Positions 1,457 through 8,691 of a stretch of 8,691 bases of DNA are shown here, one piece after another (within the stretch, counting starts at the first letter, position 1; every line of letters starts with the position of its first letter). Made by a program: the position numbers and the translations under genes. The notes beneath the pieces were generated by a model that made no database searches, had not been told where the DNA came from, and saw only the letters and a program-made list of their open reading frames with translations. The stretch is from a virus (taxonomy: Duplodnaviria; Heunggongvirae; Uroviricota; Caudoviricetes), in the IMG/VR virus record IMGVR_UViG_3300029498_000126; one strand, given 5' to 3'.

Positions 1457-1972
1457 ACCTGCCGCCCAGAAAGAAGCCTTTAATCTGGCTAGCCTGTTAA
1501 CAAATGTTAACCCTTACAACCTGTCAAAACCTGACATTCATCGCCGCGCCGTTGCGACAAATGACGACATTTTAGAGGCGTTTTCTGGGCTGAGAATTGG
1601 GCTGCGAATCCTAATAAATCCTAAGTTTTTTTCGAGTTTTGCGACCAGTACGCGCACGCGCGAAGGTGAGTTTTGCGAGTCCATAAAAAAGAGCTTGCCG
1701 TTATGCGGCAACACGGTTTATGGTTATAAGGCACCTCATAAAACGGGTGCCGGGATTAGGACCCCGCAGGCAATCGAGGCGATACATGACGCGCCAGCGT
1801 CTTTTTTTGTATCGGCGCACACGCACACCTTATCAATGGTGGGCTGTATGGGGCTGACTTCGGTCAGGCTGGTTTCCTTGATTGCCAGTAGTCCTAACCC
1901 TGTACAGTCCACCGCCAGCGAGCTTAGGACCTCCGGCGGTGGCTATAAACCATCAATCAAGGAGGCTGCCAC
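1457..1972 (+). promoter_or_regulatory. long untranslated leader with repeats and stem-loops upstream of the primase operon; candidate promoter/operator and RNA regulatory region
   Basis: No convincing ORF on either strand. Contains direct repeats TGTTAAC x2 (1495-1501, 1505-1511) and GAGTTTTGCGA x2 (1634-1644, 1668-1678), and perfect stems TTGCCG/CGGCAA (1695-1700/1706-1711), GGCACC/GGTGCC (1730-1735/1746-1751), CTGAC-TTCG-GTCAG (1854-1867) and CCACCGCC/GGCGGTGG (1909-1916/1935-1942), the last just 5' of the RBS of the first operon gene. Confidence 0.4.
1788..1810 (+). terminator. candidate rho-independent terminator within the leader
   Basis: GC-rich hairpin GACGC-gcca-GCGTC (1788-1801) followed directly by TTTTTTTGT (1802-1810). 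The stem is short (5 bp), so confidence is moderate. Confidence 0.4.
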
Positions 1973-3648: not shown

Positions 3649-3990
3649 ATGATTACTAAAAATTTCCGACTGAATGCGCTGGCGAATAAGTATGCGTCGG
3701 CACTGTATAACCACATTACCTCCACCAGCGGCGGGGACTATTTCATGGTTGATGCGGACGGCCTCGCCGTCCGTGTGGAAATCGTCAATGGAGTAAAAGG
3801 CGTTCGCAGCCTGATCGATAGCTACACACTGGCAGCCATGAAAGTGTTCTACCCGCAGTGGGAAACCGTGGGGATCGAGCTTCTTGATCGTTGCGTCACT
3901 AAGGACGGATTGACTGACGTCGGGCGCGAGATATGGCAAAGCATGATTAATGATATGGGCGCGACCGTGGCAGGAGGCAACCATGCGTAA
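3649..3990 (+). CDS. hypothetical protein (113 aa), translationally coupled to the primase
   Basis: RBS GAGGATGG upstream of ATG 3649. Stop TAA 3988-3990 overlaps the primase start (ATGCGTAA). Confidence 0.5.
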   Translation: MITKNFRLNALANKYASALYNHITSTSGGDYFMVDADGLAVRVEIVNGVKGVRSLIDSYTLAAMKVFYPQWETVGIELLDRCVTKDGLTDVGREIWQSMINDMGATVAGGNHA

Positions 3991-6742
3991 TATCGACCTT
4001 ATCCGCGAAGTGACCAGCGCCGCAGCAGGGCGCTGGCCTTATGTGCTGGCTGGATTGTCTATCGACGTGCCTGATTCATCGCGCCGCCATTCTCCATGCC
4101 CTGCATGTGGTGGAAAAGACCGTTTCAGATTCGACGACAACGGGCGCGGTAGCTTTATCTGCAACCAGTGTGGCGCTGGTGACGGGCTGGATTTAATCAA
4201 GCGGGTTAACAACTGCGACACTACGGAGGCGGCACAGCTTGCCGCTGACGTGCTGGGTATTGATTACCGGGCAGCGCAAACCGACCCGGTGGCAGCGAGC
4301 CATAGAAGAGAGCAACTGGAAGCTGACCGCCAGCAGCGTGAGCAGGAGCGCCAGAAACAGGCAGCAGAGGACGCAGAGCAGCGAAGGGCTACGTTTGCCC
4401 GTCTGTATGCCGGAATGCGCCAGAGTGTCACACAGGGCGAATCTGATTACCTGCAATCAAAAGGGCTGACCGGGTTTAATTACCCGGTTATGTCTGATGG
4501 TTCGCTACTCCTGCCGCTGGTGGATGAATCCGGCGCAGTAGTGGCGGCGCAGACCATCACGCCGCAGGGAGATAAACGACTCCTGACAGGTTCAGCAAAG
4601 CGCGGGGCATATCACGCCGTAAACGCGCCAGAATCGCCGCAGAGCGTTTTAATTGCCGAGGGGCTGGCGACGGCCCTTTCAGTTCACCTGATGCGCCCGG
4701 ACGCGCTGGCAGTGGCAGCAATTGACGCGGGCAACCTGCTACCCGTTGCCGAAGTGATGCGCCGGAAGTATCCACAGGCACAAATAATCATCGCCGCAGA
4801 CAACGACCACCACCAAAACGGAGAAGCCAATACAGGCAGGGAGGCCGCAGAGAAAGCCGCCTTGTCCGTGGCTGGATGGGTGGCACTGCCGCCGACAGAC
4901 TACAAAGCCGACTGGAACGACCACCACCAGCAAAACGGGCTGGAAGTCGCTACGGCTGCGTTTAACGACTCGATGTACCAGATTCAAGGGGAAGCCGTTA
5001 AACCACGATTGCAGGCCATTGAGGGCGGTAAAACTGACCATCCAGAGAAAGACCCACTAAAACCCCACATTGAGAGCCGAAAAGATGTCGTTTTCTGGGT
5101 AACGCCGAAGGTGGACAAGGAAAGCGGGGAGATCATCAACGCTGAAAGCTGGTTATGTTCACCGTTGGAGGTTATCGGCACGGGACGCGACGACAAAGAT
5201 CAGTATCTTATTATCTCATGGCTGGCATTTGGTGCAGGCATACCGACAACAGCGGCTATCCCGCTGGCTGATATTGGCGAGCGTGAAGGCTGGCGCACCC
5301 TGAAAGCTGGTGGCGTCAACGTCACAACGAAAAACAGCCTACGGGCGATTCTTGCCGACTGGTTACAGCGAAGCGGCTCGCGTGAATTGTGGCGCGTTGC
5401 TCATGCTACAGGCTGGCAGTGTGGGGCATACATCATGCCGGACGGGGAAATCATCGGCACACCTCAGCGGCCTGTTTTGTTCAGCGGGCGCAGTTCAGCC
5501 GCTGCCGGGTATACCGTAGCAGGAACGCCTGAAAGCTGGCTTAACAGTGTTGCGCGGCTGGCATACGGCAACTACGCGATGATGACAGGCATCGCCGCAG
5601 CACTGGCAGCGCCATTAATCGGGGTGGCAGATCGTGACGGATTCGGGATTCATTTTTATGAGCAATCGAGCGCCGGGAAAACAACCACGCAGAACGTGGC
5701 GAGCAGTCTTTACGGCAACCCTGATGCCTTGCGCCTGACGTGGTATGGGACGGCGCTGGGGCTGATAAACGAGGCCGCCGCCCACAATGACGGGCTGATG
5801 CCGCTGGATGAAGTCGGACAGGGCGCAGACCCGATAAGCGTTTCTCAGTCTGCCTATGCCCTGTTTAACGGCGTGGGGAAATTGCAGGGAGCAAAGGAAG
5901 GAGGCAACCGGGATCTGAAACGCTGGCGCACCGTGGCAATCAGCACCGGGGAAATGGATTTAGAAACGTTCATCGCCACCGCAGGACGCAAGACAAAAGC
6001 GGGGCAACTGGTGCGACTGCTGAATATCCCGCTGAGTAAGGCGGTGCGCTTTCATGAGCACCAGACAGGGAAAGATCACGCCGACGCGCTGAAAGACGCT
6101 TACCAGCACCATCATGGCGCTGCCGGGCGGGAGTGGATTAGATGGCTTTCAGACCACCAGCAGCAGGCGATTGATGCCGTTCGTGAGTGTGAAGCCCGAT
6201 GGCGAAGTCTAATCCCTGCTGACTATGGGGAACAGGTTCACCGTGTAGGGGCGAGGTTCGCCATTCTGGAGGCCGCTTTACTGCTGGGTGGCGTGGTTAC
6301 TGGCTGGGATGCTCAAACGTGCCGGGATGCGATACAGCACACCTATAACGCATGGCTGAAAGAGTTCGGCACGGGGAACAAAGAGCACCAGCAGATCATC
6401 GAGCAGACGGAGGCGTTTTTAAATGCCTATGGGCTGAGTAGATTCGCGCCGCTGGGTTATGACCCGCGCGATTTACCCATCCGTGATTTAGCCGGGTACA
6501 GGAAGAAGGGGAACCACGACGGCGACCCGATAATTTTCTACACCTTCCCGGCAACATTTGAGCAGGAGATCGCACGGGGTTTTAATGTCAGGCAGTTTGC
6601 CGAAGTTCTCAAGAATGCAGGAATGCTAACACCACCAACGAGCGGGCGAGGTTATCAGGGGCGGGTAAGGGAAGGAGGGCGGCAAATTCGCGTTTATGTG
6701 CTCAACTTCATGGATGAGGAAAGCAGCCAGCCAGAAGAATAA
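3983..6742 (+). CDS. P4-alpha-like DNA primase/helicase (zinc finger + Toprim primase + P-loop helicase/ori-binding C-terminus)
   Basis: 919 aa from ATG 3983 with AGGAGG 7 nt upstream (the track ORF begins 11 codons earlier at 3950). Cys motifs CPACGG...FICNQCG at about 4097-4175. Charged Q/E/R-rich linker. Toprim-like acidic motifs (LIAEGLATALS; IIIAADNDHHQNGEANTGREAAEKAA). Walker A SSAGKTT (~5671-5690) and Walker B LMPLDEVG (~5800-5820). Architecture matches satellite-phage P4 alpha-type primase-helicases. Confidence 0.9.
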   Translation: MRNIDLIREVTSAAAGRWPYVLAGLSIDVPDSSRRHSPCPACGGKDRFRFDDNGRGSFICNQCGAGDGLDLIKRVNNCDTTEAAQLAADVLGIDYRAAQTDPVAASHRREQLEADRQQREQERQKQAAEDAEQRRATFARLYAGMRQSVTQGESDYLQSKGLTGFNYPVMSDGSLLLPLVDESGAVVAAQTITPQGDKRLLTGSAKRGAYHAVNAPESPQSVLIAEGLATALSVHLMRPDALAVAAIDAGNLLPVAEVMRRKYPQAQIIIAADNDHHQNGEANTGREAAEKAALSVAGWVALPPTDYKADWNDHHQQNGLEVATAAFNDSMYQIQGEAVKPRLQAIEGGKTDHPEKDPLKPHIESRKDVVFWVTPKVDKESGEIINAESWLCSPLEVIGTGRDDKDQYLIISWLAFGAGIPTTAAIPLADIGEREGWRTLKAGGVNVTTKNSLRAILADWLQRSGSRELWRVAHATGWQCGAYIMPDGEIIGTPQRPVLFSGRSSAAAGYTVAGTPESWLNSVARLAYGNYAMMTGIAAALAAPLIGVADRDGFGIHFYEQSSAGKTTTQNVASSLYGNPDALRLTWYGTALGLINEAAAHNDGLMPLDEVGQGADPISVSQSAYALFNGVGKLQGAKEGGNRDLKRWRTVAISTGEMDLETFIATAGRKTKAGQLVRLLNIPLSKAVRFHEHQTGKDHADALKDAYQHHHGAAGREWIRWLSDHQQQAIDAVRECEARWRSLIPADYGEQVHRVGARFAILEAALLLGGVVTGWDAQTCRDAIQHTYNAWLKEFGTGNKEHQQIIEQTEAFLNAYGLSRFAPLGYDPRDLPIRDLAGYRKKGNHDGDPIIFYTFPATFEQEIARGFNVRQFAEVLKNAGMLTPPTSGRGYQGRVREGGRQIRVYVLNFMDEESSQPEE

Positions 6743-6766
6743 TCTTTTTTCACATACGTAGTTTTA

Positions 6767-7027
6767 GTGTTGTCTCAGTTGTCTTTGTTGTCTCATTTTG
6801 TAAGTTACATTGATTTATAAGGATTTTATTTTAATTTCTGAGACAACATTGAGACAACATTTAGCCATTTTGAGACAACAGGGCGAACGTGTGTTTTTAG
6901 TCCGGCAGGCAGTGAGACAACATTTATGCCGGGTGAGACAACACGAAATTGCAAATGTTGTCTCAGCAAAACCCAGACGTGGCGCGGCCTGTAGAGCCGT
7001 GAGACAACAAAGACAACAGAGACAACA
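6767..7027. repeat. iteron array (TGAGACAACA / TGTTGTCTCA), probable origin of replication
   Basis: Core GAGACAAC on + at 6840-6847, 6851-6858, 6872-6879, 6914-6921, 6935-6942, 7001-7008, 7019-7026 (plus AGACAAC 7011-7017). Reverse complement GTTGTCTC at 6769-6776, 6787-6794, 6957-6964 (plus GTTGTCTT 6778-6785). Spacings of 11, 21, 42, 21 and 9 bp suggest helical phasing. Lies just 3' of the primase/helicase gene. Confidence 0.75.
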
Positions 7028-7057
7028 CTATTTTTGTTTATATACAAAAAAATCTGG
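7028..7057. other. AT-rich tract adjacent to the iterons, candidate DNA unwinding element
   Basis: ctatttttgtttatatacaaaaaaatctgg is strongly AT-rich and abuts the last iteron. Confidence 0.4.
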
Positions 7058-7130
7058 CGAAGGTGTCCCACAATAAGACGGTGCCGGGCAATCTTCATTA
7101 GCAAAACTAATAATTCGAGGTATTCGCAAA

Positions 7131-7592
7131 ATGACAGCACAGATATCAGCCTACGGGCGGCTGGTGGCAGATCCCCAGACCAGAACGACAAACAGCGGCG
7201 GCAGCATGACAATGGGGCGTTTAGCGGTGGCACTGCCTTGCCATGCAGCAGAGGGCGGAGAGGTTACTTTCTGGCTGGGCGTGGTGGCATTCGGCAAACA
7301 GGCCGACGCACTGGCAGGACACGTTAAAGGCGATTTAGTCAGTGTTGCCGGAGCGATGCAGGTCAATCAGTGGGCGGGCAAGGATGGCGGTACACAGCAG
7401 GGGTATCAGGTAGTAGCCGACAGCGTGATCAGCGCCAGAACGGTACGCCCCGGCGGGAAGCGGGCCGAGTCAGTCAAAGCAAGTGGAGCCAGCAGGGGCC
7501 ACAAAACGCAATCCGCGCCGGGATGGGAGCTATATAACACCCCTGATGATTTTGACCAGCGCCCACCATTCGACGATGAAACGCCATTCTGA
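7131..7592 (+). CDS. ssb: single-stranded DNA-binding protein (SSB family, OB fold) with acidic C-terminal tail
   Basis: 153 aa. N-terminal region follows the SSB pattern seen in E. coli SSB (G.L..DP..R...GG...; W..VV.FGK.A....KG..V...G......W). C-terminus ...DDFDQRPPFDDETPF closely resembles the E. coli SSB tail ...DFDDDIPF. GAGG about 11 nt upstream of the ATG. Confidence 0.8.
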   Translation: MTAQISAYGRLVADPQTRTTNSGGSMTMGRLAVALPCHAAEGGEVTFWLGVVAFGKQADALAGHVKGDLVSVAGAMQVNQWAGKDGGTQQGYQVVADSVISARTVRPGGKRAESVKASGASRGHKTQSAPGWELYNTPDDFDQRPPFDDETPF

Positions 7593-7603
7593 GGGGGGTG
7601 AAC

Positions 7604-7915
7604 ATGGTAAACGACAGCAAAGCTGAGGATCTGGAAGCAAAAGGGCTGTACCGACGCGCCGCCGCGCGATGGATGGAAGTCATGCTGTTATGCACCGAGG
7701 ACGATGATCGGGAATGGATAAAGCGCCGCCGTGAAACGTGTCTGGAGAACGTGAAGCGCCCGCCCGTGAAGGTTGAGGACTTTGGCGACCTGCATAAAGC
7801 TGTCACCGAAACTCAGCACCGCATGGGGATAGCGCAACCGAACGGTAACGCCTTCCGGTTAAATGGCGGCAAGAGGCAACGGCAGACCACCAGCGGGGGC
7901 GATGGTTCGCAGTAA
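7604..7915 (+). CDS. small regulator, PerC-like (103 aa)
   Basis: ATG 7604 with GAGGGGGG RBS directly upstream (the track ORF starts at a GTG at 7598). N-terminus MVNDSKAEDLEAKGLYRRAAARWMEVM...REWIKRRRETCL resembles what I recall of PerC-family activators, which are common in enterobacterial prophages and satellites. From memory, not a search. Confidence 0.45.
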   Translation: MVNDSKAEDLEAKGLYRRAAARWMEVMLLCTEDDDREWIKRRRETCLENVKRPPVKVEDFGDLHKAVTETQHRMGIAQPNGNAFRLNGGKRQRQTTSGGDGSQ

Positions 7916-7930
7916 GTTTCGCACCCAAAC

Positions 7931-8299
7931 GGCGGAAAATTTAGTACTGTTTAGTACGGATTTAAAACCCTAGCCGCGCCAGTAGCGGGCTGGAAGCCAA
8001 ATCCTGATTCAGGACGTCCTAAATATCTGGTTCGTTCCACTGGTACGCAGTCAGGTGCGCAGCAAAACTGCGCATTCAACGTGCGTACTACCTGACGAAT
8101 GCTAACGGTGGTATTGCGTACAGAAATTGCGAATTCGCAGTAATTTCTAAGCGCGAATTGCTCATTCGAAAAATAGCGGAGATGCCTGTTATTGCTGGCT
8201 TGGGCGCTATCCGTTCGCAGTAGATGGCGGAAGTTAGATATACAGTTTTATTAAGGTATTGTTAGGGTTTGTTAAGGTTTTTGCGCACAAAAATGCGCA
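7931..8299. promoter_or_regulatory. dyad-symmetry-rich intergenic region: candidate operator/promoter and/or packaging (cos/pac-like) site
   Basis: Direct repeats TTTAGTAC x2 (7931-7938, 7941-7948). Interleaved inverted repeats GTACGCA (8043-8049)/TGCGTAC (8082-8088) and GTCAGGT (8050-8056)/ACCTGAC (8090-8096) around TGCGCA-N7-TGCGCA (8056-8074). Near-perfect palindrome GAAATTGCGAATTCGCAGTAATTTC (8123-8147). Tandem ~10-bp T-phased repeats (8251-8280). Second TGCGCA-N6-TGCGCA site (8282-8299) 15 bp upstream of the ATG at 8314. Confidence 0.45.
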
Positions 8300-8313
8300 C
8301 AGTGAGCCGTTAA

Positions 8314-8691
8314 ATGAAAAAAAATAGCCAACAATCAAGATCGGGATGGGGTGGCAAGCGGAAAGGCGCAGGCGCACCATTGGGCAATACTAATGCCGTC
8401 AAACATGGCGAACGCAGTCGGCGGGCATTCTTCCCATTTGAGGGGGGAGAGGCGCTTTCTCCGCTGGTGCGAAATCGTGCAAGAAACCTCATGCTGGCTG
8501 AGAGATACGGGCTATTACTGGCGAATAATCCGACGCCGGGAACAGAAGAATGGCGCGAGATGACATTGATTAACGGACTCATGGGGCTACATGCCGACAG
8601 AATCGCACGGCTTGAGCTGAGATTAGCGAGAGCCGTTTCAATGCAAGCAAGGCGGGATCTGCGAAGGGTTAAAAAAAGCGGCGCATGTTAG
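8314..8691 (+). CDS. hypothetical basic protein (125 aa); possible small-terminase-like or packaging-associated DNA-binding protein
   Basis: Complete ORF ending with TAG at the window edge. Basic glycine-rich N-terminus GWGGKRKGAGAPLGNTNAVKHG is reminiscent of DNA-binding N-termini seen in some phage small terminase subunits. Helical Arg-rich C-terminal half. Functional call rests on that motif and the position after the dyad-rich region, so it is tentative. Confidence 0.4.
   Translation: MKKNSQQSRSGWGGKRKGAGAPLGNTNAVKHGERSRRAFFPFEGGEALSPLVRNRARNLMLAERYGLLLANNPTPGTEEWREMTLINGLMGLHADRIARLELRLARAVSMQARRDLRRVKKSGAC

Follow-up and report, generated by a model that had tools for sequence, protein, structure and literature searches.

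In the replication zone of PICI satellites, the gene for SSB, a protein that binds single-stranded DNA, colocalises with the primase gene and a mapped origin (Tommasini, Mageeney and Williams 2023, PMC10111431). The origins of Gram-negative PICIs have a layout of two iteron sets and an AT-rich stretch (Fillol-Salom et al. 2018, PMC6092414), and relatives of the P4 immunity RNA have been reported in these islands (PMC10111431). Some PerC-family regulators were reported as activators of the LEE island (PMC6092414). On plasmids, SsbF of the F plasmid partially complements chromosomal ssb mutants (PMC9849209). We sought a functional study of a PICI SSB in the literature and found none, only a catalogue statement (PMC10111431).

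In this study, we analysed an ssb gene located in a stretch of 8,691 nucleotides from a Caudoviricetes record (IMG/VR IMGVR_UViG_3300029498_000126), hereafter called the window. The features of the region are listed in Table 1. RefSeq PGAP gives identical ORF bounds on an E. coli locus that is 99.7% identical (L001, 14389-14850; L numbers designate loci of the genome scan presented below) and names the product, WP_016244018.1, "single-stranded DNA-binding protein". Since RefSeq annotates the gene in this way and SSB genes are catalogued in a published satellite survey (PMC10111431), the window ssb is an ordinary gene, known in kind.

Table 1. Position of the ssb gene, its parts and its neighbours in the window
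Feature	Position	Strand	Description and basis
Satellite primase-helicase gene (pri/rep)	3950-6742	+	930 aa; Zn-ribbon, Toprim and DUF927 helicase domains (Pfam)
Iteron replication origin	6769-7026	.	10 exact GAGACAAC copies and degenerate copies
Likely ribosome-binding site, GAGG	7117-7120	+	11-14 nt 5' of the ssb ATG; read off the sequence
ssb ORF	7131-7592	+	153 aa, ATG start, C-terminus ...DFDQRPPFDDETPF; ORF list and sequence
SSB OB-fold domain, residues 1-107	7131-7451	+	Pfam SSB, AlphaFold2 strands, Foldseek, aligned aromatics and conservation
Disordered linker, residues 108-143	7452-7559	+	pLDDT <50; variable outside the GWExYNTPDDFDQ stretch
Acidic tip RPPFDDETPF and stop codon	7560-7592	+	Likeness to the E. 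coli SSB tip (SSB-Ct)
Tail peptide of the window SSB			WELYNTPDDFDQRPPFDDETPF
perC-family regulator gene	7604-7915	+	Pfam PerC, 2e-29; PGAP gene at L001 14862-15173

The initial annotation had taken the ORF product for an SSB homologue encoded by a satellite. Alignment to family profiles, the check proposed there, gave a match to Pfam SSB (PF00436) over residues 4-99 with 52.6 bits for a cut-off of 26 (E 5e-14). PHROG 44 (single strand DNA binding protein) also matched (E 2e-28), as did the sequences of bacterial SSBs in the PDB (best E 4e-9). The Pfam match, the PDB matches, the AlphaFold2 model and the Foldseek search agree, and the window ORF encodes a true SSB-family protein. The full-length ssb model of NCBIfam (TIGR00621) aligned to residues 7-153 with 50.8 bits, under its cut-off of 53.95. 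This score is only marginally too low, which points to a divergent member of the SSB family and not to a separate family. A protein search returned 739 homologues, and every named one is an SSB. Given these homologues and an OB domain far more conserved than the linker, the ORF does not arise by chance. Three minus-strand ORFs that overlap ssb (7151-7366, 7406-7540 and 7474-7806) were set aside as non-coding.

The structure of the window SSB was modelled with AlphaFold2, using an alignment of 30 homologues as input. In the model, beta strands span residues 3-102. The mean confidence of 10-residue blocks is 81-92, except near a low-confidence loop at residues 37-43 (about 62-65) and at residues 81-90 (73). 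Residues 104-153 have a pLDDT below 50 and are predicted to be disordered. A Foldseek search of the PDB with this model returned only bacterial SSBs among the top 50 matches, including S. aureus SsbB and SsbA and B. subtilis SsbA, with E-values down to 2e-9 and target TM-scores of 0.63-0.81.

We then compared the protein with E. coli SSB, using a sequence identical to PDB 1eqq across 178 residues. BLASTP aligned the two with 24% identity (E 4e-8). Residues W48, F54 and W81 of the window SSB align with W54, F60 and W88 of E. coli; in the family alignment, they vary little or not at all. The position of E. coli W40 is occupied by Cys37, which is invariant in the family, so that three of the four ssDNA-stacking aromatics are kept. 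His55, found at the tetramer interface in E. coli, aligns with Leu49.

Regional conservation was calculated as mean pairwise identity in the 30-sequence alignment. It amounts to 82% in the OB domain (residues 1-107), 32% in the linker (residues 108-131), 46% in the stretch preceding the tip (residues 132-143) and 50% in the tip itself (residues 144-153). Of the 117 homologues that are nearly full-length, 100 (85%) terminate in Phe and 8 in Leu, and the last eight residues include a mean of 2.8 acidic and 0.15 basic ones. This three-part pattern, with a conserved OB domain, a variable linker and an acidic tip ending in Phe, is typical for bacterial SSBs. The GWExYNTPDDFDQ stretch lies directly before the tip, where it is conserved and specific to the subfamily of the window SSB; its D142 and Q143 are invariant in the alignment.

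The tip of the window SSB reads PPFDDETPF where E. coli SSB has MDFDDDIPF. Counted from the C-terminus, FDDETPF and FDDDIPF are equal at five of seven positions, and the resemblance put forward in the initial annotation therefore stands. The variant is nothing special: the acidic run and the terminal Pro-Phe are both retained, and sister PICI SSBs carry the canonical ends ...GDGIPF and ...GDNIPF. Among the matches listed (n=120), the C-terminal dipeptide is PF in 57, DF in 25 and QF in 10, and DDETPF falls inside the range of tips found across the family. In the same matches, the penultimate Pro is absent from roughly a third of the family or more, and about one fifth ends in ...DDDF. This Pro is important in E. 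coli, where the ssb-113 mutation is P176S. With about a third of the family lacking a residue that matters in E. coli, the range of partners may differ.

The element carrying the gene was identified through its chromosomal relatives. The window segment 6743-7930, comprising ori, ssb and perC, is 99.7% identical to E. coli chromosomes. In NZ_CP092452, it belongs to an island inserted between yicC and dinD. Genes of this island are, in order, a tyrosine integrase, a hypothetical protein, AlpA, an AntA/AntB-domain protein, DUF4222, an ash/Icd-like region, small ORFs, the primase-helicase, SSB, PerC, a 125-aa ORF and a pRiA4b-ORF3 protein. Pfam supports the integrase and AlpA (Phage_AlpA, 5.6e-8) of L001, and all island genes but one lie on the same strand. 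Two 30-nt direct repeats, 93% identical and 11,962 nt apart (L001 5300-5329 and 17262-17291), flank the island and are probably attL and attR. The dinD gene beside the island is annotated by PGAP as a pseudogene with an internal stop.

Rfam detected isrK (63 bits, 1731-1807) and C4 antisense RNA (80 bits, 1832-1919, plus strand) in the window, both relatives of the P4 CI/seqA immunity RNA. Many Stx-converting phages match the region 1731-1919 at about 91% identity. A 327-aa ORF at 1395-2378 is probably no gene; it overlies the isrK/C4 RNAs, and PGAP annotates there an ash pseudogene and a small Icd-like gene. The island of about 12 kb with integrase and AlpA, the att repeats and the isrK/C4 RNAs point to the organisation of a Gram-negative PICI. 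The integrase and AlpA stand at one end, the genes are unidirectional, the size is within 10-20 kb, att repeats flank the element, and pri/rep is followed by an origin whose two sets of iterons flank an AT-rich stretch, which matches the layout described for Gram-negative PICIs (PMC6092414). The attribution of the SSB to a satellite thus agrees with the island at L001, where integrase, AlpA, pri and ori occur in a PICI-like arrangement.

Several other observations were made on this element. No match to a helper cos or pac site was found in the phage collection for the non-coding segment 7916-8313. Neither Pfam nor PHROG gave a match for the 125-aa ORF (8314-8691, plus strand). Its N-terminal GWGGKRKGAGAPLGNTNAVKHG bears a weak likeness to the beginning of a small terminase subunit (NCBIfam TerS_not_xtmA, E 1e-3, far under the cut-off), and its product may be a packaging-redirection factor. 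Conservation of the ORF amounts to 97-99% in L002 and L005, and to 50-67% in loci of Rosenbergiella and Serratia. On either side of it lies a direct repeat of 77 nt with 73% identity (window 7937-8013; L001 15980-16056, past the end of the window), which includes a GC-rich inverted repeat, CCCGCGCCAGTAGCGGG. The leader TATTCGCAAAATG is common to the sequences around the start codons of the integrase and ssb genes (L001 5385-5400 and 14379-14394, the latter equal to window 7121-7136; 16 nt, 94% identical), a likeness that may be due to chance.

Upstream of ssb, Pfam identified Zn_Ribbon_Prim (1.4e-15), Toprim_3 (9e-15) and DUF927 (6e-48) in the primase-helicase, for which PGAP places the start at 3983 and RefSeq gives the name "TOPRIM and DUF927 domain-containing protein". 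The gap between pri and ssb measures 388 nt with 39% GC. For the exact iterons, 0.19 copies would be expected, and none of 200 shuffles reached the number observed. A minus-oriented set (6769-6794) is followed by an AT-rich spacer (about 6796-6838) and a mostly plus-oriented set (6840-7026), within which one copy is minus-oriented (6957-6964). A distance of 104 nt separates the end of the last copy from the ssb ATG, in line with the earlier description of the gene as located immediately after the origin.

Downstream, 10-11 nt separate the ssb stop from the perC start (window 7592-7604; L053 9411-9422), and the ssb-perC pairing repeats in an O157:H7 PICI and about a dozen related loci. A scan of positions 6600-8400 for promoters and terminators found none between pri and ssb on the plus strand; counts did not exceed those of shuffled sequences, and the scan gave no evidence that ssb has a promoter of its own. 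Co-transcription of ssb with its neighbours is therefore the simplest reading, and perC is probably on the same transcript. With such tight spacing, PerC-family regulators would be co-expressed with satellite replication genes. The pairing suggests that a regulator family linked to virulence is expressed alongside the replication of the satellite.

A genome scan yielded 51 loci. For these, and for two E. coli islands, we recorded the ORF of the SSB and the closest replication gene upstream of it, which was classified by its domains with Pfam checks. In enterobacterial loci where both genes were identified, SSB lies about 80-1400 nt 3' of the replication gene, with a 4-nt overlap in two loci. 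Most of the pri-ssb gaps examined are rich in iterons, with one 8-mer present 5-12 times at the same position as in the window. The motif varies by locus (GAGACAAC, ATCCCTAC, GAACCAAC, ACGGGTTA, GGTAGACA and others).

To see whether the tail binds its own helicase, tail class was then set against the type of neighbouring helicase. PPFDDExPF-type tails occur with DUF927 in 9 loci and with D5-type helicases in 3, and ...DDF tails in 3 and 2 loci, respectively. The ...[IV]PF tails are found beside Toprim-DUF927 in 3 loci, D5_N-DUF927 in 3 and D5-type helicases in 2. No association between tail class and helicase class was detected in the 51 loci and two E. coli islands, which are few and phylogenetically related for such a comparison. 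That the tail does not track the helicase is weak evidence for a partner that all hosts share, as opposed to the cognate helicase of the satellite.

In the replication proteins themselves, a Zn-ribbon/Toprim N-terminal half, 70-94% identical, is fused to DUF927 in the window, L001 and L002, and to a D5-type helicase in L003, L005 and L016. The iteron switches with the helicase type (GAGACAAC versus ATCCCTAC), which looks like domain swapping within the satellite replication protein.

We next considered the distribution of the SSB. Homologues are found in Escherichia, Klebsiella, Citrobacter, Enterobacter, Pluralibacter, Raoultella and Pantoea. Among 5,426 complete genomes of E. coli, 1,654 contain a homologue detected by blastn (30%), at up to six places per genome. 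In O157:H7 strain 86-24, the homologue is located on an island with capsid, protease, portal and terminase genes, in the order DUF927 helicase, small ORF, SSB and PerC, and the protein ends in ...DDPYGDGIPF. In Nissle 1917, the homologue adjoins a D5_N/DUF5906/Pox_D5 primase and ends in ...DDPYGDNIPF.

In a phage collection of 50,697 records, no match of at least 60% identity to the window SSB was found. The best matches there are SSBs of Gram-positive phages with 30-37% identity, and the search gave no sign of a recent capture from a known helper phage. Only 49 plasmid records matched, 14 of them at 60-80% identity. With few plasmid matches and no phage match of at least 60%, the SSB lineage looks satellite-associated and old; judged from these sequence comparisons, a recent origin as a copy of a host or helper gene does not seem likely.

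In several genomes (L038, L041, L047, L049 and L052), the satellite ssb is truncated or disrupted, which suggests decaying islands. More distant relatives are present in alphaproteobacteria (L039-L046 and L048; Sphingomonadales, Rhizobium and Mesorhizobium), with an OB domain 42-52% identical and a length of 114-127 aa without the acidic tip. In L039, L040, L042, L043 and L045, the next ORF overlaps the SSB gene and resembles the Toprim-containing part of the window primase; Pfam confirmed Toprim_3 for the overlapping ORF in L040.

The initial annotation offered the coating of ssDNA and the competition for, or redirection of, host SSB partners as possible functions. Gene context favours a plain replication role for the window SSB. 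We estimate at about 60% the probability that it is the satellite's own replication SSB, which would coat ssDNA at the origin, recruit host SSB partners through its host-like tip and add to the supply of SSB during helper-induced amplification. A helper phage would induce the island, leading to transcription of an AlpA-controlled, one-directional operon. The primase-helicase, as its domains and the layout suggest, would bind the GAGACAAC iterons and open the origin. The OB fold would then coat the exposed ssDNA by means of W48, F54 and W81, while the disordered linker would display the ...PPFDDETPF-COOH tip. This tip could dock in the pockets of host partners that are used by DDDIPF, for instance in Pol III chi, PriA or exonuclease I. 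The satellite would bring its own supply of SSB at a time when replication of both helper and satellite would deplete the host pool, as is thought for plasmid and phage SSBs. As it stands, the finding only confirms the annotation: the gene encodes a mobile-element SSB of the standard kind, located in the replication zone of E. coli satellites that belong to a common family.

Another explanation is that the tail has been adapted to a satellite or helper-phage partner, such as the primase-helicase or a helper recombinase or polymerase, and not to host SSB partners. A precedent exists in gp2.5 of phage T7, whose acidic, Phe-terminated tail binds the T7 polymerase and helicase-primase. The window tip does depart from the invariant host DDDIPF, but it retains F-D-D-x-x-P-F. 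Many family members end in ...DDDF without the penultimate Pro, whereas sister PICI SSBs retain the canonical ...IPF tip. The conserved GWExYNTPDDFDQ before the tip is an additional feature of the window subfamily, and the lineage is distant both from the host SSB and from the phage records. A tail adapted to the satellite helicase sits poorly with tail classes that are independent of helicase class (DUF927 versus D5). We consider this explanation unlikely.

A related and rather improbable proposal, drawn from the sequences compared here, is that tip drift, the extra GWExYNTPDDFDQ stretch and the satellite-restricted lineage could together re-tune the choice of partners, either to a subset of host SSB partners or by capture of a helper-phage recombination or replication protein. 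If so, replication resources would be biased to the satellite, or the helper would be subject to interference. SSBs of this kind are found in some 30% of complete genomes of E. coli, O157:H7 and Nissle 1917 among them. If the divergent tip shifted partner specificity, a satellite SSB redirecting the SSB interaction network of the host, or the recombination of helper phages, would represent a widespread and unstudied layer of conflict between satellite, helper and host.

The SSB might also act as an interference or decoy factor, slowing helper replication or recombination by coating ssDNA or sequestering host partners, or altering a defence that senses SSB. Interference with helpers is common among satellites, and the lineage was found on satellites, with no match of at least 60% identity in the phage records. 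In a preprint, phage SSB-like proteins are reported to control the activation of a defence reverse transcriptase (bioRxiv 10.64898/2026.04.29.721553). However, ssb has a fixed place right behind pri and ori, which belongs to the replication zone and not to the variable accessory zones (PMC10111431), and neither Pfam nor AlphaFold2 indicates an added domain. We consider such a role rather improbable. A decaying or dispensable passenger without a current role is hardly credible despite the truncated copies, as the ORF is intact at most loci, the OB domain is 82% identical between genera and its DNA-binding aromatics are invariant, conservation extends to the tip although the linker varies freely, and homologues persist in nearly a third of complete E. 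coli genomes.

The replication SSB favoured here can finally be placed among known systems. Chromosomal SSB of E. coli (P0AGE0; PDB 1eqq/1eyg) likewise has one N-terminal OB fold, the equivalents W54, F60 and W88, a disordered linker and an acidic tip ending in F-D-D-x-x-P-F-COOH. The window SSB differs from it by its low identity, a shorter L23 loop, Cys in place of W40 and Leu in place of His55. Its linker of about 40 residues (about 60 in E. coli) is not rich in Gly, Gln and Pro, its tip is DDETPF instead of DDDIPF, and its gene is accessory and carried by a satellite. Phage T7 gp2.5 is also an element-encoded ssDNA-binding protein with an acidic, Phe-terminated tail that recruits replication partners. 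It belongs, however, to another OB-fold family, forms a dimer and has phage-encoded partners, and no sequence similarity to the window SSB was detected.

Staphylococcal SCC/SCCmec elements are likewise chromosomal islands that carry a DUF927-family Cch helicase and their own OB-fold ssDNA-binding protein (PMC10061031), and the window helicase gives a weak match to NCBIfam SCCmec Cch1. The SCC SSBs discussed there pair with a polymerase via variable C-terminal tails (PMC10061031), whereas the window has a host-like tail and no polymerase gene. SsbF of the F plasmid and its relatives are also mobile-element SSBs present beside an essential host gene, and are thought to supply SSB when ssDNA is abundant. 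By analogy, F-plasmid SSB is the nearest functional precedent for the window SSB. On plasmids, ssb is a gene of the leading region with early expression in the recipient, whereas the window ssb follows the primase-helicase gene and a vegetative iteron origin. The window SSB is a member of the SSB family of Gram-negative PICIs and capsid-forming PICIs (PMC10111431), in which its subclade is distinguished by PPFDDE(T/D/A)PF and GWExYNTPDDFDQ, and the O157 and Nissle copies by the ending DPYGD(G/N)IPF.
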